64,000 nt of DNA from an uncultured candidatus Porisulfidus sp. (GTDB taxonomy: Bacteria > Pseudomonadota > Gammaproteobacteria > Poriferisulfidales > Poriferisulfidaceae). Positions 4,035-63,834 of the stretch are shown piece after piece; positions within the stretch are counted from its first letter, which is position 1, and each line of letters starts with the position of its first letter. A program made the translations under genes and the position numbers. The DNA lies in the NCBI GenBank assembly GCA_965116025.1, contig OZ220480.1, positions 1,408,001 to 1,472,000 on the forward strand. Direction: 5' to 3'. The notes under the pieces were generated by a model. That model was given only the letters and a program-made list of their open reading frames with translations. It did not search any database and was not told the DNA's origin.

Positions 4035-4513
4035 GCTTGCACGATCTCGTCGACCGCCGCCAGGACCTCCGCGGCGTGGCCGGGCACCCGGACCTTCCGC
4101 CAAACGCGGCGCGCTATGCCTTCCGGGTCGATCAGGAACGTGCTGCGCTCGATGCCACGAACTTTTCGCCCGTACATGTTCTTCATCTTGATGACATCGT
4201 ATTTTTCGCAGGCGATCTCGTCGGGATCGGAAAGGAGTCGGAATGGAAATCCATGTTTGGCTTTGAAGTTCTCATGGGTCTTGAGCGAGTCGCGAGAGAC
4301 CCCGAGGATAATGGTCCGGCGGTGGCGAAAACGCGGGTGCAGATCCCGGAAGTCCTGTCCTTCCGTGGTGCATCCAGGCGTGTGGTCCTTGGGGTAGAAG
4401 TACAGGACCACGGGGTGGCCCCGGAATTCGGACAAGCGCGCGAGCTCGCCTCCCGTGGAAAGCAACTCGAAATCTGGAGCTCGGCTCCCTTCCACGACCG
4501 GTTTGGTTGCCAT
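4031..4513 (-). CDS. bcp: Peroxiredoxin Bcp/PrxQ
   Basis: LYFYPKDHTPGCTTE motif, RSTFLID. Confidence 0.93.
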   Translation of the reverse strand: MATKPVVEGSRAPDFELLSTGGELARLSEFRGHPVVLYFYPKDHTPGCTTEGQDFRDLHPRFRHRRTIILGVSRDSLKTHENFKAKHGFPFRLLSDPDEIACEKYDVIKMKNMYGRKVRGIERSTFLIDPEGIARRVWRKVRVPGHAAEVLAAVDEIVQA

Positions 4514-4599
4514 CTTCCGCGCATGACCTCAGAAAAAAGGGCCGAAAGCATATCATATCCGGTGAACGTTCCGGCGGTTGATGAGCGTTCCGACTTGAC

Positions 4600-4635
4600 C
4601 GTGGAGCCGCGCTTCAGTCTCACGCCTCGCTGGAA
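4600..4635 (+). repeat. 36-bp imperfect direct repeat, copy 1
   Basis: cgtggagccgcgcttcagtctcacgcctcgctggaa; 30/36 identical to 5556-5591. Confidence 0.7.
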
Positions 4636-4841
4636 TATCAGCGCTCCCGGTCCAGCGCTCCGCCTTCCGAATGGCTCTGGACTCGCGAGACGTGCCGAGC
4701 GCCGAGACGGTCAGAGGCTCTTTCGCCATATCGCGTGGCCAGCCGCCGCATCGCCCTACCGGATGGCTGGAGGCTGAGCCTCGCGACCGGATAATTGCCC
4801 ATCGCTTTACAATGCGTAAGGTGGATGTCTGATTTTGACGC

Positions 4842-5353
4842 ATGCCGACACCAGGATCCCGTGAAGAGCTTCTTGATGCGATCAACACGAGCTTTGATCG
4901 TCTTGATAAGGATCTGAGGATGGTGCCCGTGGCGAAAAGCGATGAAGCGACCCTTGAGGGGCATGTCAAGGGCACGGCAATGAGCGTCCACGATCTGGCA
5001 AGCTATCTCTTGGTTGGAATATGCTGGTGCTGAAGTGGATTGAACAGGACGCGGGAGGCGAGCCGATTGATTTTCCTGAGACCGGTTTCAGATGGAATCA
5101 GCTCGGCGCGCTCGCGCGAAAGTTTTACGCGGATTTCGACACCGTTCCTCTTGGTCGGCTTTTGGAGGCTCTCGAAGTCACAAAACAGGAAATCGTCACG
5201 TTCATTTCCGGCCAGACCAACGAACGCCTGTACGGTGGGCCATGGTGCGGGAAGCACACCATGGGCCGAATGATCCAACTCAATACGTCCTCGCCGTACG
5301 CTAATGCCCGCGCGCGTTTGCGGAAATGGAAGCGGCGACATGGCATCGCATGA
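4842..5353 (+). pseudogene. ClbS/DfsB (DUF1706) four-helix bundle protein, frameshifted near 5010
   Basis: ORF 4842-5033 (..EGHVKGTAMSVHDLASYL) and ORF 5021-5353 (LVLKW..DFPETGFRWNQLG..NTSSPYANAR) join into one family protein if one base is restored at tatctcttggttggaat (YLxGWN). Confidence 0.75.
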
Positions 5354-5555
5354 TGGAGACTGACGGCGAAGGGTTCTCGCTTGGATGTTCAGGCTTTTGT
5401 CGTTGGAAAACGTCTCTTTCGATCATTGGCGAACTTCAGCATGCCGCTGATTACAATGGGTTTTCGGAAAAATTCATCGAGGGCCGCGGTGTTGACGGTG
5501 AGGCCCTGCCGCGGCGTGGGCGACCGGTCGCCTTCAGGGCCCCGCCGTCCGGGAA

Positions 5556-5591
5556 CGTGAAACCGCGCTTCAGTCCCACGCCTCGTCAGAA
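5556..5591 (+). repeat. 36-bp imperfect direct repeat, copy 2
   Basis: cgtgaaaccgcgcttcagtcccacgcctcgtcagaa. Confidence 0.7.
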
Positions 5592-5616
5592 GACTCCGTT
5601 TTCCCGGTCTGGGCGA

Positions 5617-6264
5617 CATATATGGTTCGCCCCCTCCCTGCAAGTCGGAAGCTTGAGGCGACGGTCGATCGGCCGCGCACATATATCCGGCCTCTCGGTG
5701 GGAGGACGTCGCCTCCCGGGCCCCGATGGGTTCCGCACGCTCCGGCCTTATCATTTGTACGGCCTCGAAGGCCTATGTCAACACCAGGCTCTCGGAGCGT
5801 CGGTCCGACCTGTTCCGCCATCCTTTCGCTTCTTCCCCGCAACCGATCGGCGGGCGAAGCCCGCCGGGATCCGGAGGGAAGCCTCACGTCATGCAGGCTT
5901 CCTCCCGATAGGTTCCGCCACGCCGGAGCAGCGCCCAGGCGATGCGGACGTTCTTGTTCGCCAACGCGACCGCCGCCACGTTGTCGTGGTGGCGCTCGCG
6001 CAGGCCGCGAAGCCAAGCGCCGAGCGCGTCCTCGCGCTGGTCGGAGACCCGCAACACCGCTTTCGCGCCCAAGATCAGCAGGCCGCGCAAGGCGCGGTCC
6101 CCCCGCTTGCTGATCCCTCCGAGCTTCGGCTTTCCGCCGGTGGAGTATTGCCGCGGCACCAGGCCGAGGTAGGCGGCCGCCTCCCGCCCGTCGCGGAACT
6201 CGCCGCCGTCGCCCAGCTTCGCGACCAGGGCGCTGGCCGACAGCGCGCCTATGCCCGGGATCGT
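5617..6264 (-). mobile_element. Partial tandem duplicate (648 bp) of the IS110 right end, non-coding region and 3' part of transposase
   Basis: Repeats 6265-6912 with period 648; shadow ORFs 5622/6270, 5726/6374 and 5942/6590 are identical. Confidence 0.92.
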
Positions 6265-6289
6265 CATATATGGTTCGCCCCCTCCCTGC

Positions 6290-6531
6290 AAGTCGGAAGC
6301 TTGAGGCGACGGTCGATCGGCCGCGCACATATATCCGGCCTCTCGGTGGGAGGACGTCGCCTCCCGGGCCCCGATGGGTTCCGCACGCTCCGGCCTTATC
6401 ATTTGTACGGCCTCGAAGGCCTATGTCAACACCAGGCTCTCGGAGCGTCGGTCCGACCTGTTCCGCCATCCTTTCGCTTCTTCCCCGCAACCGATCGGCG
6501 GGCGAAGCCCGCCGGGATCCGGAGGGAAGCC
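6290..6531 (-). ncRNA. Putative IS1111 bridge/seek RNA (second copy at about 5642-5883); boundaries approximate
   Basis: Two hairpin-split loops carrying matches to the target flanks (6400-6406, 6423-6427) and to the donor junction (6328-6334, 6373-6378). Confidence 0.7.
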
Positions 6532-7578
6532 TCACGTCATGCAGGCTTCCTCCCGATAGGTTCCGCCACGCCGGAGCAGCGCCCAGGCGATGCGGACGTT
6601 CTTGTTCGCCAACGCGACCGCCGCCACGTTGTCGTGGTGGCGCTCGCGCAGGCCGCGAAGCCAAGCGCCGAGCGCGTCCTCGCGCTGGTCGGAGACCCGC
6701 AACACCGCTTTCGCGCCCAAGATCAGCAGGCCGCGCAAGGCGCGGTCCCCCCGCTTGCTGATCCCTCCGAGCTTCGGCTTTCCGCCGGTGGAGTATTGCC
6801 GCGGCACCAGGCCGAGGTAGGCGGCCGCCTCCCGCCCGTCGCGGAACTCGCCGCCGTCGCCCAGCTTCGCGACCAGGGCGCTGGCCGACAGCGCGCCTAT
6901 GCCCGGGATCGTCATCAGCCGCCGGCAGCCCGGGTCGGCCTCGGCATGCGCCTGGATCCGCGCCCGGCAACGCCCCTCCCGCCGGTCCAGCTCCCGCACC
7001 TCCTCGTAACCTTCCGCCAGCGCCTCGCGGACTTCCGGAAGCAAGCCGTTCTCGCCGTCCTCCAGGATCTCCGGCAGCCGCGCCCGAAAGACCCCGATCC
7101 CTTTCGGCATGACGATCCCGTACTCCTGCAGGAACGCGCGCGACTGATTGACCAGCCGGGTGCGGCTCCGCACCAGCCGCGCCCGCGTCCGATGGCATTG
7201 CTGGATCGCTTGCTCGGCTTCCGTCCGCGCCGGCACGAAGCGCATGCTCGGACGGCTCCGCGCCTCGCAGATGGCCTCCGCGTCGCGCGCGTCGTTCTTG
7301 TTCGACTTCACGAACGGCTTCACGAAGGACGGCGCCATCAGCCGCGCGTCATGCCCATGACGACGGAACAGCCGCGCCCAGTGATGCGCGCCGCCGCAGG
7401 CCTCCAGCCCGACCCGGCATGGCGGCAGCTCCTCCGCGAAGCGTTCCAGCTGAGCCCGCGTGAAGCGCCTCTCCAGCACGATCTTGCCGGCGCGCGTCAT
7501 GCCGCAAGCGTGAAACGCCTGCTTGCCCAGGTCCACGCCCAGATGGGCGATGGCCAGTTGATGTAGAGTCCGCTTCAT
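6532..7578 (-). CDS. IS110 family DEDD transposase/recombinase
   Basis: GVDLGK, GLEACG, KNDARDA (DEDD); TIPGIG; LGLVPRQYSTGGK serine loop; start taken at ATG 7578. Confidence 0.95.
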   Translation of the reverse strand: MKRTLHQLAIAHLGVDLGKQAFHACGMTRAGKIVLERRFTRAQLERFAEELPPCRVGLEACGGAHHWARLFRRHGHDARLMAPSFVKPFVKSNKNDARDAEAICEARSRPSMRFVPARTEAEQAIQQCHRTRARLVRSRTRLVNQSRAFLQEYGIVMPKGIGVFRARLPEILEDGENGLLPEVREALAEGYEEVRELDRREGRCRARIQAHAEADPGCRRLMTIPGIGALSASALVAKLGDGGEFRDGREAAAYLGLVPRQYSTGGKPKLGGISKRGDRALRGLLILGAKAVLRVSDQREDALGAWLRGLRERHHDNVAAVALANKNVRIAWALLRRGGTYREEACMT

Positions 7579-7670
7579 AAGGGTCGTCCCGCTTTCGCGA
7601 TGGGTTGGTTGTACTCTCATTGTGCCCGCTCAAGGCCAAGCAGGGAAGCGGGGCGAACCATCCCATCATT

Positions 7671-7679
7671 TGTTAAAAT
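7671..7679 (+). promoter_or_regulatory. Extended -10 element for dapA
   Basis: TGtTAAAAT 28 nt before dapA ATG, abutting the IS end. Confidence 0.45.
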
Positions 7680-7707
7680 GCGGACGGGCTGACCCACAAA
7701 CTCTCGC

Positions 7708-8592
7708 ATGATTCGTCTTCAAGGTAGCATGGTCGCCATGGTCACCCCCATGCGCGCGTCCGGCGACATCGACTACGCGGCGCTGGCCGACGTGGTGGAC
7801 TTTCATCTGGAGCGGGGCACTGACGCGCTGGTTCCGGTGGGCACGACCGGGGAATCGGCGACCTTAAGCGTATCGGAGCACCATGAGGTCATTCGCCGCG
7901 TGGTGGAGCGAGTGGATGGGCGAATTCCGGTGATCGCGGGCACTGGCGCCAACGCCACCGCTGAAGCCATCGAGCTGACTCGTTACGCGCATGAGGCGGG
8001 AGCCGACGCTTGCTTGCTGGTGACGCCGTATTACAACAAGCCGACCCAAGAGGGTTTGTACCAACACTATCGGGCGGTCGCCGAGGCCGTGCCGATCCCG
8101 CAGATCCTGTATAACGTTCCGGGTCGGACGGCCTGCGACATGTTGCCGGAGACGGTGACGCGGCTGGCTGGGCTGGAATGGATCGTTGGCATCAAGGAGG
8201 CGACTGGCGACCTGCACCGGATTCGCCGCCTGCGCGAGTCGTGCGGCGACGAGTTCATCATTATCAGCGGAGACGACGAGACATCCATGGATACGCTACT
8301 TAACGGAGGGCAGGGAGTGATCACGGTGACGGGCAACGTGGCGCCCGAGCTGATGCACGAGATGTGCATGGCCGGGCTGGAGGGAGATGCCGAGGCGGCG
8401 CGCGCCCATGATCGGAAGCTGGAGCTGCTCCATCGCGATCTGTTCGTCGAGTCCAGCCCGATTCCAGTGAAGTGGTGCTTGCACCGCATGGGATTGATCC
8501 CGGAGGGCATCCGCCTGCCGCTGACTCCGCTCTCGGAAGGGTTGCGCGGGACTTTGGAGGCCGCCATGCGCGCGGCGGGGGCGCTGGCGTGA
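7708..8592 (+). CDS. dapA: 4-hydroxy-tetrahydrodipicolinate synthase
   Basis: GTTGES, TPYYNKP, LYNVPGRT, GIKEATG. Confidence 0.97.
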   Translation: MIRLQGSMVAMVTPMRASGDIDYAALADVVDFHLERGTDALVPVGTTGESATLSVSEHHEVIRRVVERVDGRIPVIAGTGANATAEAIELTRYAHEAGADACLLVTPYYNKPTQEGLYQHYRAVAEAVPIPQILYNVPGRTACDMLPETVTRLAGLEWIVGIKEATGDLHRIRRLRESCGDEFIIISGDDETSMDTLLNGGQGVITVTGNVAPELMHEMCMAGLEGDAEAARAHDRKLELLHRDLFVESSPIPVKWCLHRMGLIPEGIRLPLTPLSEGLRGTLEAAMRAAGALA

Positions 8593-9686
8593 GGCGCTGG
8601 GCATGGGCAGGCGGTCTGGCCGCGTTGCTCGCGGGTTGTGGGGACGAGCCGCTGACCATTGAGGAATTGGTTGGGGAGGCGGCCGATGTGTTCGAGAGCG
8701 ATTGGTGGGGAGGTGAGGAGGAATATGGCTCTAGCCAGTCGACCGAGGCGCTTCGAGTGCCGCCGAAACTCAGCTTGCCGGATACCAGCGCGCAGTTAGC
8801 GATCCCGGAACTTGGCGGAGTCAGCGCGAAGAAGACGGGCCGGGGGGCGGCCTCAGTGTTGCCGGGCTTCATGGAAATGAAAGTGCGGCGGGAAGGAAGC
8901 GCGCGATGGCTGGAGGTGGGGGCGGACCCGGTCACCCTGTGGCCGCATCTTCGCTCTTTCTGGGAAGACCAGGGATTCGAGCTGGTCCAAGAGGCGCCAT
9001 TGCTTGGCATCCTGGAGACGAAGTGGCGCGAGAAGGCGGATGACATCCGGGGACTGGACACGGAATCCGGAGGCCTGTACTACACGGCTTCACGGGAGAA
9101 GTTCCGCTTGCGTATGGAACGCGAGCCTAACGCGTACGCCAACGTGTTCATCACGCGACAAAAACTTGAGGTGGCGGGCTTGGACGCCAACGACACGGTG
9201 ATCTGGAAAGCCGGGCGCCCGGACCCGGAGCGCGAGGCTGAGATGCTGGTCCGCTTGATGGAGCATTTGGGCTCCACTCGGATGGAAAGCGTGGCCACCT
9301 TGGAGGAAGAGGTGGTGGAGGCCACCGTCGGCCTGGACCTGAAGTATATAGGGGGCACCCCGGTGCTGATGGTCGGCGATCAGTACAGTAGCGTGTGGCG
9401 CCAGGTTGGCATCGCCTTGGAGCGGACCGGGCTGTACGTGGTCGATCTTGACCGCGACCAGGGAACCTACGTCTTCCGCTATCGAACGCGAGGCCCCGAT
9501 GGCGGGCCAGCCGATACTCTCCTGGAGGTCCATCTGCTTTCCCGCGAGGAGGATCTGACTCTGCTGACGGTGCATCGGCACAAATCGGACCAGCCAGTGG
9601 ACAAGGACCTGAATCGCGCCGTGTTGCGCGCGATCTTGGCGGGATACTCGCTCACGCCTCGGGAACTCACGGCCGAAGCGGAATAA
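8589..9686 (+). CDS. bamC: Outer membrane assembly lipoprotein BamC/NlpB
   Basis: GTG start overlapping dapA stop, lipobox LAGC, LRVPPKL, GILETKW; conserved dapA-bamC order. Confidence 0.85.
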   Translation: MRRWAWAGGLAALLAGCGDEPLTIEELVGEAADVFESDWWGGEEEYGSSQSTEALRVPPKLSLPDTSAQLAIPELGGVSAKKTGRGAASVLPGFMEMKVRREGSARWLEVGADPVTLWPHLRSFWEDQGFELVQEAPLLGILETKWREKADDIRGLDTESGGLYYTASREKFRLRMEREPNAYANVFITRQKLEVAGLDANDTVIWKAGRPDPEREAEMLVRLMEHLGSTRMESVATLEEEVVEATVGLDLKYIGGTPVLMVGDQYSSVWRQVGIALERTGLYVVDLDRDQGTYVFRYRTRGPDGGPADTLLEVHLLSREEDLTLLTVHRHKSDQPVDKDLNRAVLRAILAGYSLTPRELTAEAE

Positions 9687-63591: not shown

Positions 63592-63717
63592 ATGGGATGG
63601 TTCGCGCCGTTTCCCTGCTTGGCCTTGAGCGGGCGCAATGGGAGTACGACCAACCCATAGCGAAAGCGGGACGAACCTATGAAGCGGACTCCATATCAAC
63701 TCGCCATCGCCCATCTG
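63592..63717 (+). mobile_element. Diverged left-end remnant of the same IS1111-type element
   Basis: Aligns with reverse complement of about 7540-7666, including IR atggttcgcgcc and first transposase codons MKRTPYQLAIAHL. Confidence 0.88.
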
Positions 63718-63834
63718 CGAGGCGCGGATCTGTCCGAGCATGCGCGAAATCCCGGGCTGGCCAAACATCGTCAAAATCGATTAGCTCGGAAATCGGGGGA
63801 TTCTGGAAACCGAAGTTTGGTCATCTTCGCGCCT

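Follow-up and report, generated by a model that had tools for sequence, protein, structure and literature searches.

Bridge RNA and seekRNA recombinases are under development as programmable DNA-insertion tools. In the IS110 group, the bridge RNA of IS621 carries a target-binding and a donor-binding loop, each with one arm per strand around a short core, and a promoter forms at the circle joint (Durrant et al. 2024, PMC11208160; Hiraizumi et al. 2024, PMC11208158; PDB 8wt6). In IS621 the RNA lies at the left end, 5' of the gene, the core is CT and the subterminal repeats measure 2-3 bp. Durrant et al. also extended the two-loop model to the right ends of IS1111 elements, whose subterminal inverted repeats are published as 7-17 bp (PMC11208160). 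The IS1111 elements ISEc11, ISPa11, ISKpn4 and ISPst6 use seekRNAs (Siddiquee et al. 2024, PMC11187229), and that report describes a DEDD recombinase that measures about 340 aa and bears the motif GL-P----S/TG, for which a TG variant at the nucleophile motif is noted in IS1111 enzymes, subterminal inverted repeats with short extensions, a long 3' non-coding region, a seekRNA in which the top-strand-complementary segment stands 5' of the bottom-strand-complementary one and the two overlap in the target, insertion without target duplication, and natural re-direction between relatives. Circle-joint promoters are reported for ISEc11 in the same work (PMC11187229). In Pseudomonas putida, ISPpu9 is present in several copies, with the small-RNA gene Ssr9 3' of the transposase gene and with solo RNA modules; Ssr9 is reported as dispensable for transposition, and the circles are described as lacking a hybrid promoter (PMC12288879).

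The window analysed here is a stretch of 64,000 nucleotides (contig OZ220480.1, positions 1,408,001 to 1,472,000) from the genome of an uncultured candidatus Porisulfidus sp., which forms one contig of 2.02 Mb with 62.7% GC. Between a DUF1706 gene (5021-5353) and dapA (7708-8592, plus strand), it carries on its minus strand a 1402-bp IS110-family element of the IS1111 group (6266-7667), and we consider it highly probable that the recombinase of this element is guided by an RNA of about 134 nt derived from the 3' non-coding end. The features of the locus, in window coordinates, are the following.

6266-7667, minus strand: full IS copy, GATGGG...CCATATAT on the element strand, with ends common to seven copies
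7579-7667, minus strand: left end, 89 nt (sequence)
7662-7667, minus strand: left-end extension GATGGG, 6 nt (sequence)
7650-7661, minus strand: left subterminal inverted repeat ATGGTTCGCCCC, 12 bp, kept in relatives
6532-7578, minus strand (codons 7578-6535): recombinase gene, 348 aa and stop codon (Pfam, open frame)
6321-6454, minus strand: structured bridge RNA core, 134 nt (covariance model R1, 163.6 bits; stem covariation)
6422-6433, minus strand: target loop 5' arm GGUGUUGACAUA, complementary to the top strand of the core and right target (AT|GTC...)
6409-6421, minus strand: hairpin GGCCUUCGAGGCC between the target arms (helix 3, 93.6% paired, double changes in 5/5 pairs)
6397-6408, minus strand: target loop 3' arm GUACAAAUGAUA, in which ACAAAU is the sense of the left target and would pair with the bottom strand
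6371-6381, minus strand: donor loop 5' arm GAACCCAUCGG, in which CCCAU is complementary to left-end positions 2-6 (ATGGG)
6328-6336, minus strand: donor loop 3' arm GGAUAUAUG, in which AUAUAU is the sense of the last 6 nt of the right end
6266-6291, minus strand: right-end tip, with TTGCAG (6286-6291) and the repeat GGGGCGAACCAT (6270-6281)
7668-7679, minus strand: left target flank, ...ATTTTAACAAAT on the element strand, 38 nt upstream of dapA
5608-5617, minus strand: right target flank, GTCGCCCAGA on the element strand (sequence)
5618-6267, minus strand: partial tandem copy, holding the final 384 nt of the recombinase gene together with all of the non-coding end, with an exact 648-bp period
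5673-5806, minus strand: second, identical bridge RNA core (model match at genome 1413673-1413806)

The locus resembles the IS1111 seekRNA elements in its DEDD recombinase and motif, its subterminal repeats with short extensions, its long 3' non-coding region, the order and overlap of the two target-reading segments, the lack of target duplication and the natural re-direction between relatives, whereas its sequence, host and targets differ and it is known from sequence alone. Re-direction is seen here among copies 92-98% identical in one genome, compared with transposases 72% identical for ISEc11 and ISXne4 (PMC11187229), and the second, end-matching loop is backed by covariation. With IS621 the element shares the target-binding and donor-binding loops, the arrangement of one arm per strand around a short core and a promoter, in this case predicted, at the circle joint. 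It differs in carrying its RNA at the right end, with the arms in the opposite order, in having an RT core (donor AT; targets AT or GT) and 12-bp subterminal repeats, and in the Thr that occupies the nucleophile position where IS621 has Ser. Like ISPpu9 with Ssr9, it occurs in several copies per genome, a small-RNA gene follows its transposase gene on the 3' side and solo RNA modules are present elsewhere, but its RNA arms match targets and a promoter is predicted at its joint.

On the element strand the right end reads GGGGCGAACCAT followed by ATAT, and the terminal extensions beyond the 12-bp repeat ATGGTTCGCCCC/GGGGCGAACCAT measure 6 nt on the left and 4 nt on the right; bases 6266-6267 are common to the full copy and the adjoining partial copy. 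The non-coding sequence is 266 nt long on the right, 3' of the recombinase gene, against 89 nt on the left. The protein matches DEDD_Tnp_IS110 (PF01548; E 3.2e-20, 72.9 bits with a cut-off of 29) and Transposase_20 (PF02371; E 3.5e-24, 85.4 bits), and the motifs GVDLGK, GLEACGG and NKNDARDAEA of the N-terminal DEDD RuvC-like domain are present in its translation. The Transposase_20 motif GLVPRQYSTGG aligns with GLTPRRYESGS of IS621, and the alignment to the IS621 chain 8wt6_A places Thr (YSTGG) at the nucleophile position; in a phmmer comparison with IS621 the C-terminal domain alone aligned (E 8.8e-07). With an open frame and both the DEDD and TG motifs, the recombinase is intact as far as its sequence goes. 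All the defining features of the IS1111 group that could be assessed in this sequence were found, namely the DEDD domain, the Transposase_20 motif, subterminal repeats, a long 3' non-coding region and the absence of target duplication.

The left end of the element lies 38 nt upstream of the dapA start codon (window 7668-7707) and points away from dapA, so that the native dapA promoter region has been moved about 2 kb away.

In the RNA core the target-binding loop precedes the donor-binding loop. The fold places the target arms in a symmetric internal loop of 12+12 nt, and they overlap at the joint, the complement of the top strand being 5' and that of the bottom strand 3'. A scan of 4500-9000 against Rfam 15 with E up to 1 matched no family, which says only that no curated model fits the bridge RNA here, and the RNAalifold consensus of the seven in-genome sequences was uninformative because they are too alike. 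Between the stop codon and the RNA core (6455-6531, and 5807-5883 in the partial copy) there is an extra GC-rich hairpin (CCCGGCGGGC...GCCCGCCG) with a conserved stretch, both common to the loci L016 and L017; the hairpin region 6455-6531 may be part of a longer precursor RNA.

Relatives were collected by a protein-seeded scan with one genome per species, which gave 80 loci with 46-68% protein identity, and were searched with R1, a covariance model built on eight sequences with a hand-set two-loop structure. A full-length match was present at 77/80 loci, on the recombinase strand and about 80-250 nt after the stop codon; it was absent at L031, L047 and L086. In an alignment that was fitted to the model structure and thus favours it, the stem cells of 65 distinct sequences were paired in 90.6% as opposed to 71.1% in shuffles (0/500 reach this value). 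Changes on both sides occurred in 26/30 pairs, slid-partner controls were 30-38% paired, and the G-U pairs fit the element strand only. The weakest helix was the outer stem of the donor loop, with 67.7% paired.

The loops were compared with the flanks starting from 89 model matches, whose elements were anchored on the subterminal repeat by a CAT/ATG-anchored rule. Ten of the 89 were dropped for want of a repeat pair under this rule (the second copy in L001; L012; L013; L024 twice; L095; L053; the minus-strand match of L067; L021; and L062), and two more because the flank was cut or the loop short (L037, L039), leaving 77 records with 73 distinct guide-site pairs in 53 guide classes. The target 3' arm agreed with the 6 nt left of the element in 5.25/6 positions on average (2.26 for non-cognate pairs), and the reverse complement of the 5' arm with the 8 nt to the right in 5.99 (non-cognate 3.03). 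Combined over the 53 guide classes, which represent fewer than 53 independent events because guide and target are inherited together in related elements, the target arms matched 11.57/14 positions, compared with 5.56 (sd 0.29) when the sites were permuted (0/10000).

The donor loop follows the element ends in the same manner. In 72/78 records its 3' arm is identical to the final six nucleotides of the right end, and the right-end extensions ACAT, ATAT, ATAA, ACAC, ATAC and GTAC are each mirrored exactly in this arm. The 5' arm tracks left-end positions 2-6 (ATGGG, ATGAG, ATGGA), so that AATGAG occurs with CUCAU and AATGGA with UCCAU; this match spans 5 nt only, and 24/73 records miss one or two of the five. 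When 18 donor classes were permuted, the donor match of 10.33/11 compared with 8.83 (sd 0.24) and was reached in 0/10000 permutations. A structured RNA, arms that track the target and a second loop that matches the joined ends, as characterize bridge RNA and seekRNA systems, were thus all found, and a curated Rfam match was not.

The window's own genome contains 10 matches to R1 and holds seven full copies of the element, 92-100% identical, together with end fragments. Judged by tblastn, the recombinase frame is open in five copies (the window copy, c3, c4, c5 and c6), interrupted by one stop codon in c2 and frameshifted in c7. Copies c5 and c6 are identical over 1400 nt and are located at different sites, which points to recent movement. 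The donor-loop arms are identical across the seven copies and the target-loop arms vary; guide-loop columns are variable at 10/19 positions, compared with 159/1384 elsewhere (Fisher 1.7e-5). The seven copies carry five pairs of target arms, given here as 5' arm / 3' arm.

Window copy and c2: UGUUGACAU / ACAAAU
c3: AUUUGAUAC / UCUAGU
c4: 5' arm as in c3 (AUUUGAUAC) / UAUUGU
c5 and c6: 5' arm as in c3 (AUUUGAUAC) / UAUCGU
c7: UGUUGAUCU / ACGAAU

The fit between site and guide was scored as left 6 plus right 8. The window copy reaches 6+4, with 6/6 for the 3' arm on the left flank and just 4/8 for the 5' arm; c2 and c5 reach 5+6, c6 4+6, c4 4+7, with its site fitting only with a 1-nt offset on each side, and c3 3+7, the left flank having 3/6 with the 3' arm. 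With guides taken from the other class, the scores are 1-3 plus 2-4. The flanks of the decayed copy c7 fit its own arms poorly (1+3), and its left flank agrees with the c4 3' arm in 6/6 positions. Class-A guides fit class-A sites and class-B guides class-B sites, and by this comparison of sequences the five arm pairs mostly suit the sites of their own copies. At genome 254707(-), a paralogous site that is unoccupied, TATCGT|ATCAAA, matches the c5/c6 guide in 12/12 positions. Since c5 and c6 have flanks that align with the flanks of this site, the ends of the element are set to within 1 nt and there is no target duplication. The class-B junctions have GT on the left and AT on the right, hence the shared core is an RT dinucleotide, and the 3-nt ATG core that had been read from the window in the first-pass annotation was given up.

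In c3 the backbone is of class A at 30 of the first 32 informative positions, after which comes a class-B 5' arm as a patch, and the left flanks of c5 and c7 match the 3' arm of c4 exactly. These two observations and the five arm pairs tentatively suggest exchange or mutation of guide arms between resident copies, and copies acting in trans.

Small paralogous genes starting with MAIVE... (genome 270698, 1108100 and 254707; L006:1190-1549 (-)), whose product is a coiled-coil, membrane-like protein of about 100 aa, have the class-B target about 55 nt upstream; two of these targets carry an insertion (c5, c6) and the third is empty. Solo left-end fragments are present at genome 91277-91607 (+) (L009) and 1239921-1240114 (-) (L010), with left flanks ending in ...GATCGT and ...TATCGTT, near the class-B 3' arm UAUCGU. 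A solo bridge RNA with a right end occurs at genome 429094-429280 (-) (L012; 106 bits with the model); no recombinase gene was detected beside it, and its target arms (UUGCACAC / UUGAAU) misfit its own flank. At genome 242606-243031 (+) there is a second, different IS110-family recombinase gene (PF01548, 64 bits), which stands outside the element family. At window 63592-63744 and past the edge of the window (genome 1471592-1475763; L096:293-4464), a left end of the IS, 87% identical and including about the first 17 recombinase codons, and a diverged module of bridge RNA and right end (76% identical, 51 bits with the model) in the same orientation bracket a 1186-aa ORF with the Pfam Autotransporter beta-domain. 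The recombinase body is absent from this region, and its flanks misfit the guide arms of its own RNA module. From its sequence, it may be a cargo-carrying derivative or two remnants.

We propose the following mechanism. In the first loop, the 3' arm ACAAAU would carry the sense of the left target half and the 5' arm, with the reverse complement AT|GTCAAC, would pair with the right half, the two arms overlapping at the RT dinucleotide as the point of strand exchange. The second loop would read the two ends of the circularised element (CCATATAT|GATGGG) likewise, through AUAUAU and CCCAU. The RNA could in this way bridge the circle joint CCATATAT|GATGGG and the target ACAAAT|GTCAAC, and the recombinase-RNA complex would join the two and insert the element without duplication. 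The anatomy of the element, the conserved RNA structure and the covariation of both loops with flanks and ends are established by the sequence comparisons above; binding of the RNA by the recombinase and exchange chemistry at the RT core are what these comparisons lead us to expect. Once the ends are joined, TTGCAG stands 17 nt from TAT|GAT, forming a candidate junction promoter, and in most of the 59 distinct joined ends of the relatives TTGCA(N) is likewise followed, after a spacer of 16-18 nt, by a -10-like hexamer that spans the joint. This layout agrees with the joint promoters reported for ISEc11 (PMC11187229). A consensus promoter scan of the linear region gave 0 sites, and the candidate promoter exists solely across the joined ends. 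Transcription from it would cover both the recombinase gene and the RNA, and the RNA is presumably made, probably by co-transcription with the recombinase gene from TTGCAG-17-TAT|GAT. The natural variation of the guides suggests that the recombinase is programmable.

The matches on which this reading was first built are short, 5-7 nt each, and could in principle reflect chance or hitch-hiking similarity in a non-coding end that is no RNA guide. The strings from which two guide loops had been read in the first-pass annotation, GACAU (6423-6427), ACAAAUG (6400-6406), CCCAUC (6373-6378) and AUAUAUG (6328-6334), are indeed present as reverse complements of those positions, as are the hairpins GGCCUUCGAGGCC (6409-6421) and GGGAGG/CCUCCC. 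We shuffled the non-coding end and searched for a 7-nt sense match across the joint and a 5-nt antisense match overlapping or abutting it, with the antisense match 10-45 nt upstream. Under these criteria, which were chosen after the data had been seen, the target arrangement arose in 253/20000 shuffles and the donor arrangement in 49/20000, but both together in 1/20000. The window sequence alone makes a moderate case against chance; the covariation of the stems and that of guides and flanks over 53 guide classes, together with the copies in the genome, are decisive at the level of sequence, and we give the chance explanation practically no credence. The guide-target covariation by which the first reading was to be judged holds both in the seven genomic copies, with their class A and class B, and across the relatives, where target arms follow flanks and donor arms follow element ends. 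The target predicted at that stage, (T/C)GACATTTGT, was right, with GTTGAC|ATTTGT as the guide-ideal site on the plus strand. A different proposal grants a guiding role to the first loop alone, as in a seekRNA, with a second loop that is structural or serves processing or protein binding and with ends recognised by the protein via the subterminal repeats. An 82-nt ISEc11 seekRNA was sufficient for transposition, with a donor that had to be flanked by target sequence (PMC11187229), and the second loop may therefore be non-essential in the IS1111 group; the 5-nt match of the donor 5' arm and the 67.7% pairing of the outer donor stem also agree with this proposal. Nevertheless, we regard it as improbable, since the donor 3' arm mirrors six right-end extensions exactly, the 5' arm follows GGG, GAG or GGA of the left end, none of the 10000 permutations of the 18 donor classes reached the observed match, and for IS1111 elements bridge RNAs that include a donor loop had already been predicted (PMC11208160). 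We thus retain the reading with a donor-reading second loop.

The locus contains an exact tandem repeat of 648 bp (5620-6267 = 6268-6915), and consequently the right end, all of the non-coding end and the final 384 nt of the gene are each present twice and there are two identical RNA genes. The outer right junction is at 5617/5618, with the outer right end at 5618. The empty site gggcga-CAT-ttgtta given by the first-pass annotation rightly combined the outer flanks (left flank 5611-5619, not the sequence beside 6268), but the tandem repeat between them went unmentioned. At the tandem junction the right end is joined to GACGATCC inside the recombinase gene, at a common AT. An ordinary guided insertion at this pseudo-site was considered and is unsupported, because the site fits the guides poorly (3/6 plus 4/8, counted by eye). 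Most economically, the tandem would stem from a single unequal sister-chromosome exchange made by the recombinase between the right junction and the internal gene site; in a two-step alternative, a circle would insert into the resident copy and a homologous deletion would follow. It could also have arisen through slippage at a microhomology, CGNCAT being present on both sides, or through an error in assembly, and we rank these below the exchange and two-step origins. As to whether the recombinase took part in making the junction, we see the chances as about even.

Independent DNA evidence comes from public sequencing runs. In the public run X1 one contig joins 5615 to 7667, skipping 2051 bases, and represents the empty allele in a variant strain about 2% divergent (6 differences in 313 nt of flank); its joint is 1 nt off the prediction, base 5616 being missing, and the right half then fits the guide less well. 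Contigs of run X2 span both outer junctions. Among the contigs listed, none spans the inner 6267/6268 junction and none contains a circle joint. The empty sites and the two identical copies at different sites together establish, from sequence, that the element has moved recently. It could still be that the copy at this locus is rearranged and immobile and that its tandem is an assembly artefact or a slippage unrelated to the recombinase. The inner junction spanned by no listed contig, the CGNCAT shared by the sequence before the repeat unit and the end of the unit, and the poor fit of the pseudo-site are all compatible with this view, which we take seriously and judge unlikely: one boundary of the repeat falls exactly at the right end of the element, with the common AT core, which is rare for random slippage, and the full copy retains an open recombinase frame and both ends. 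We can only tentatively put forward a joint interpretation of the sequences, which we doubt will hold in full, comprising arm-by-arm retargeting within one 2-Mb genome through arms exchanged or mutated between resident copies and copies acting in trans, a 648-bp junction made by the recombinase at a site sharing little beyond the AT core and doubling the RNA gene, and a natural cargo derivative at L096.

The element is, by its sequence, a member of the established bridge RNA and seekRNA kind, and what is noteworthy beyond that are the natural guide variants within one genome and the patchwork of c3. With it comes a further clade, whose enzyme is compact at 348 aa and whose RNA measures 134 nt, and the element's five natural target-arm pairs with their genomic sites are a ready-made data set on specificity. 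The covariation supports a donor-reading loop in the IS1111 group, where the mechanism is less settled than for IS621 and where a short seekRNA sufficed experimentally. For the host, the element accounts for seven insertions and several remnants in the genome, one of them 38 nt upstream of dapA.
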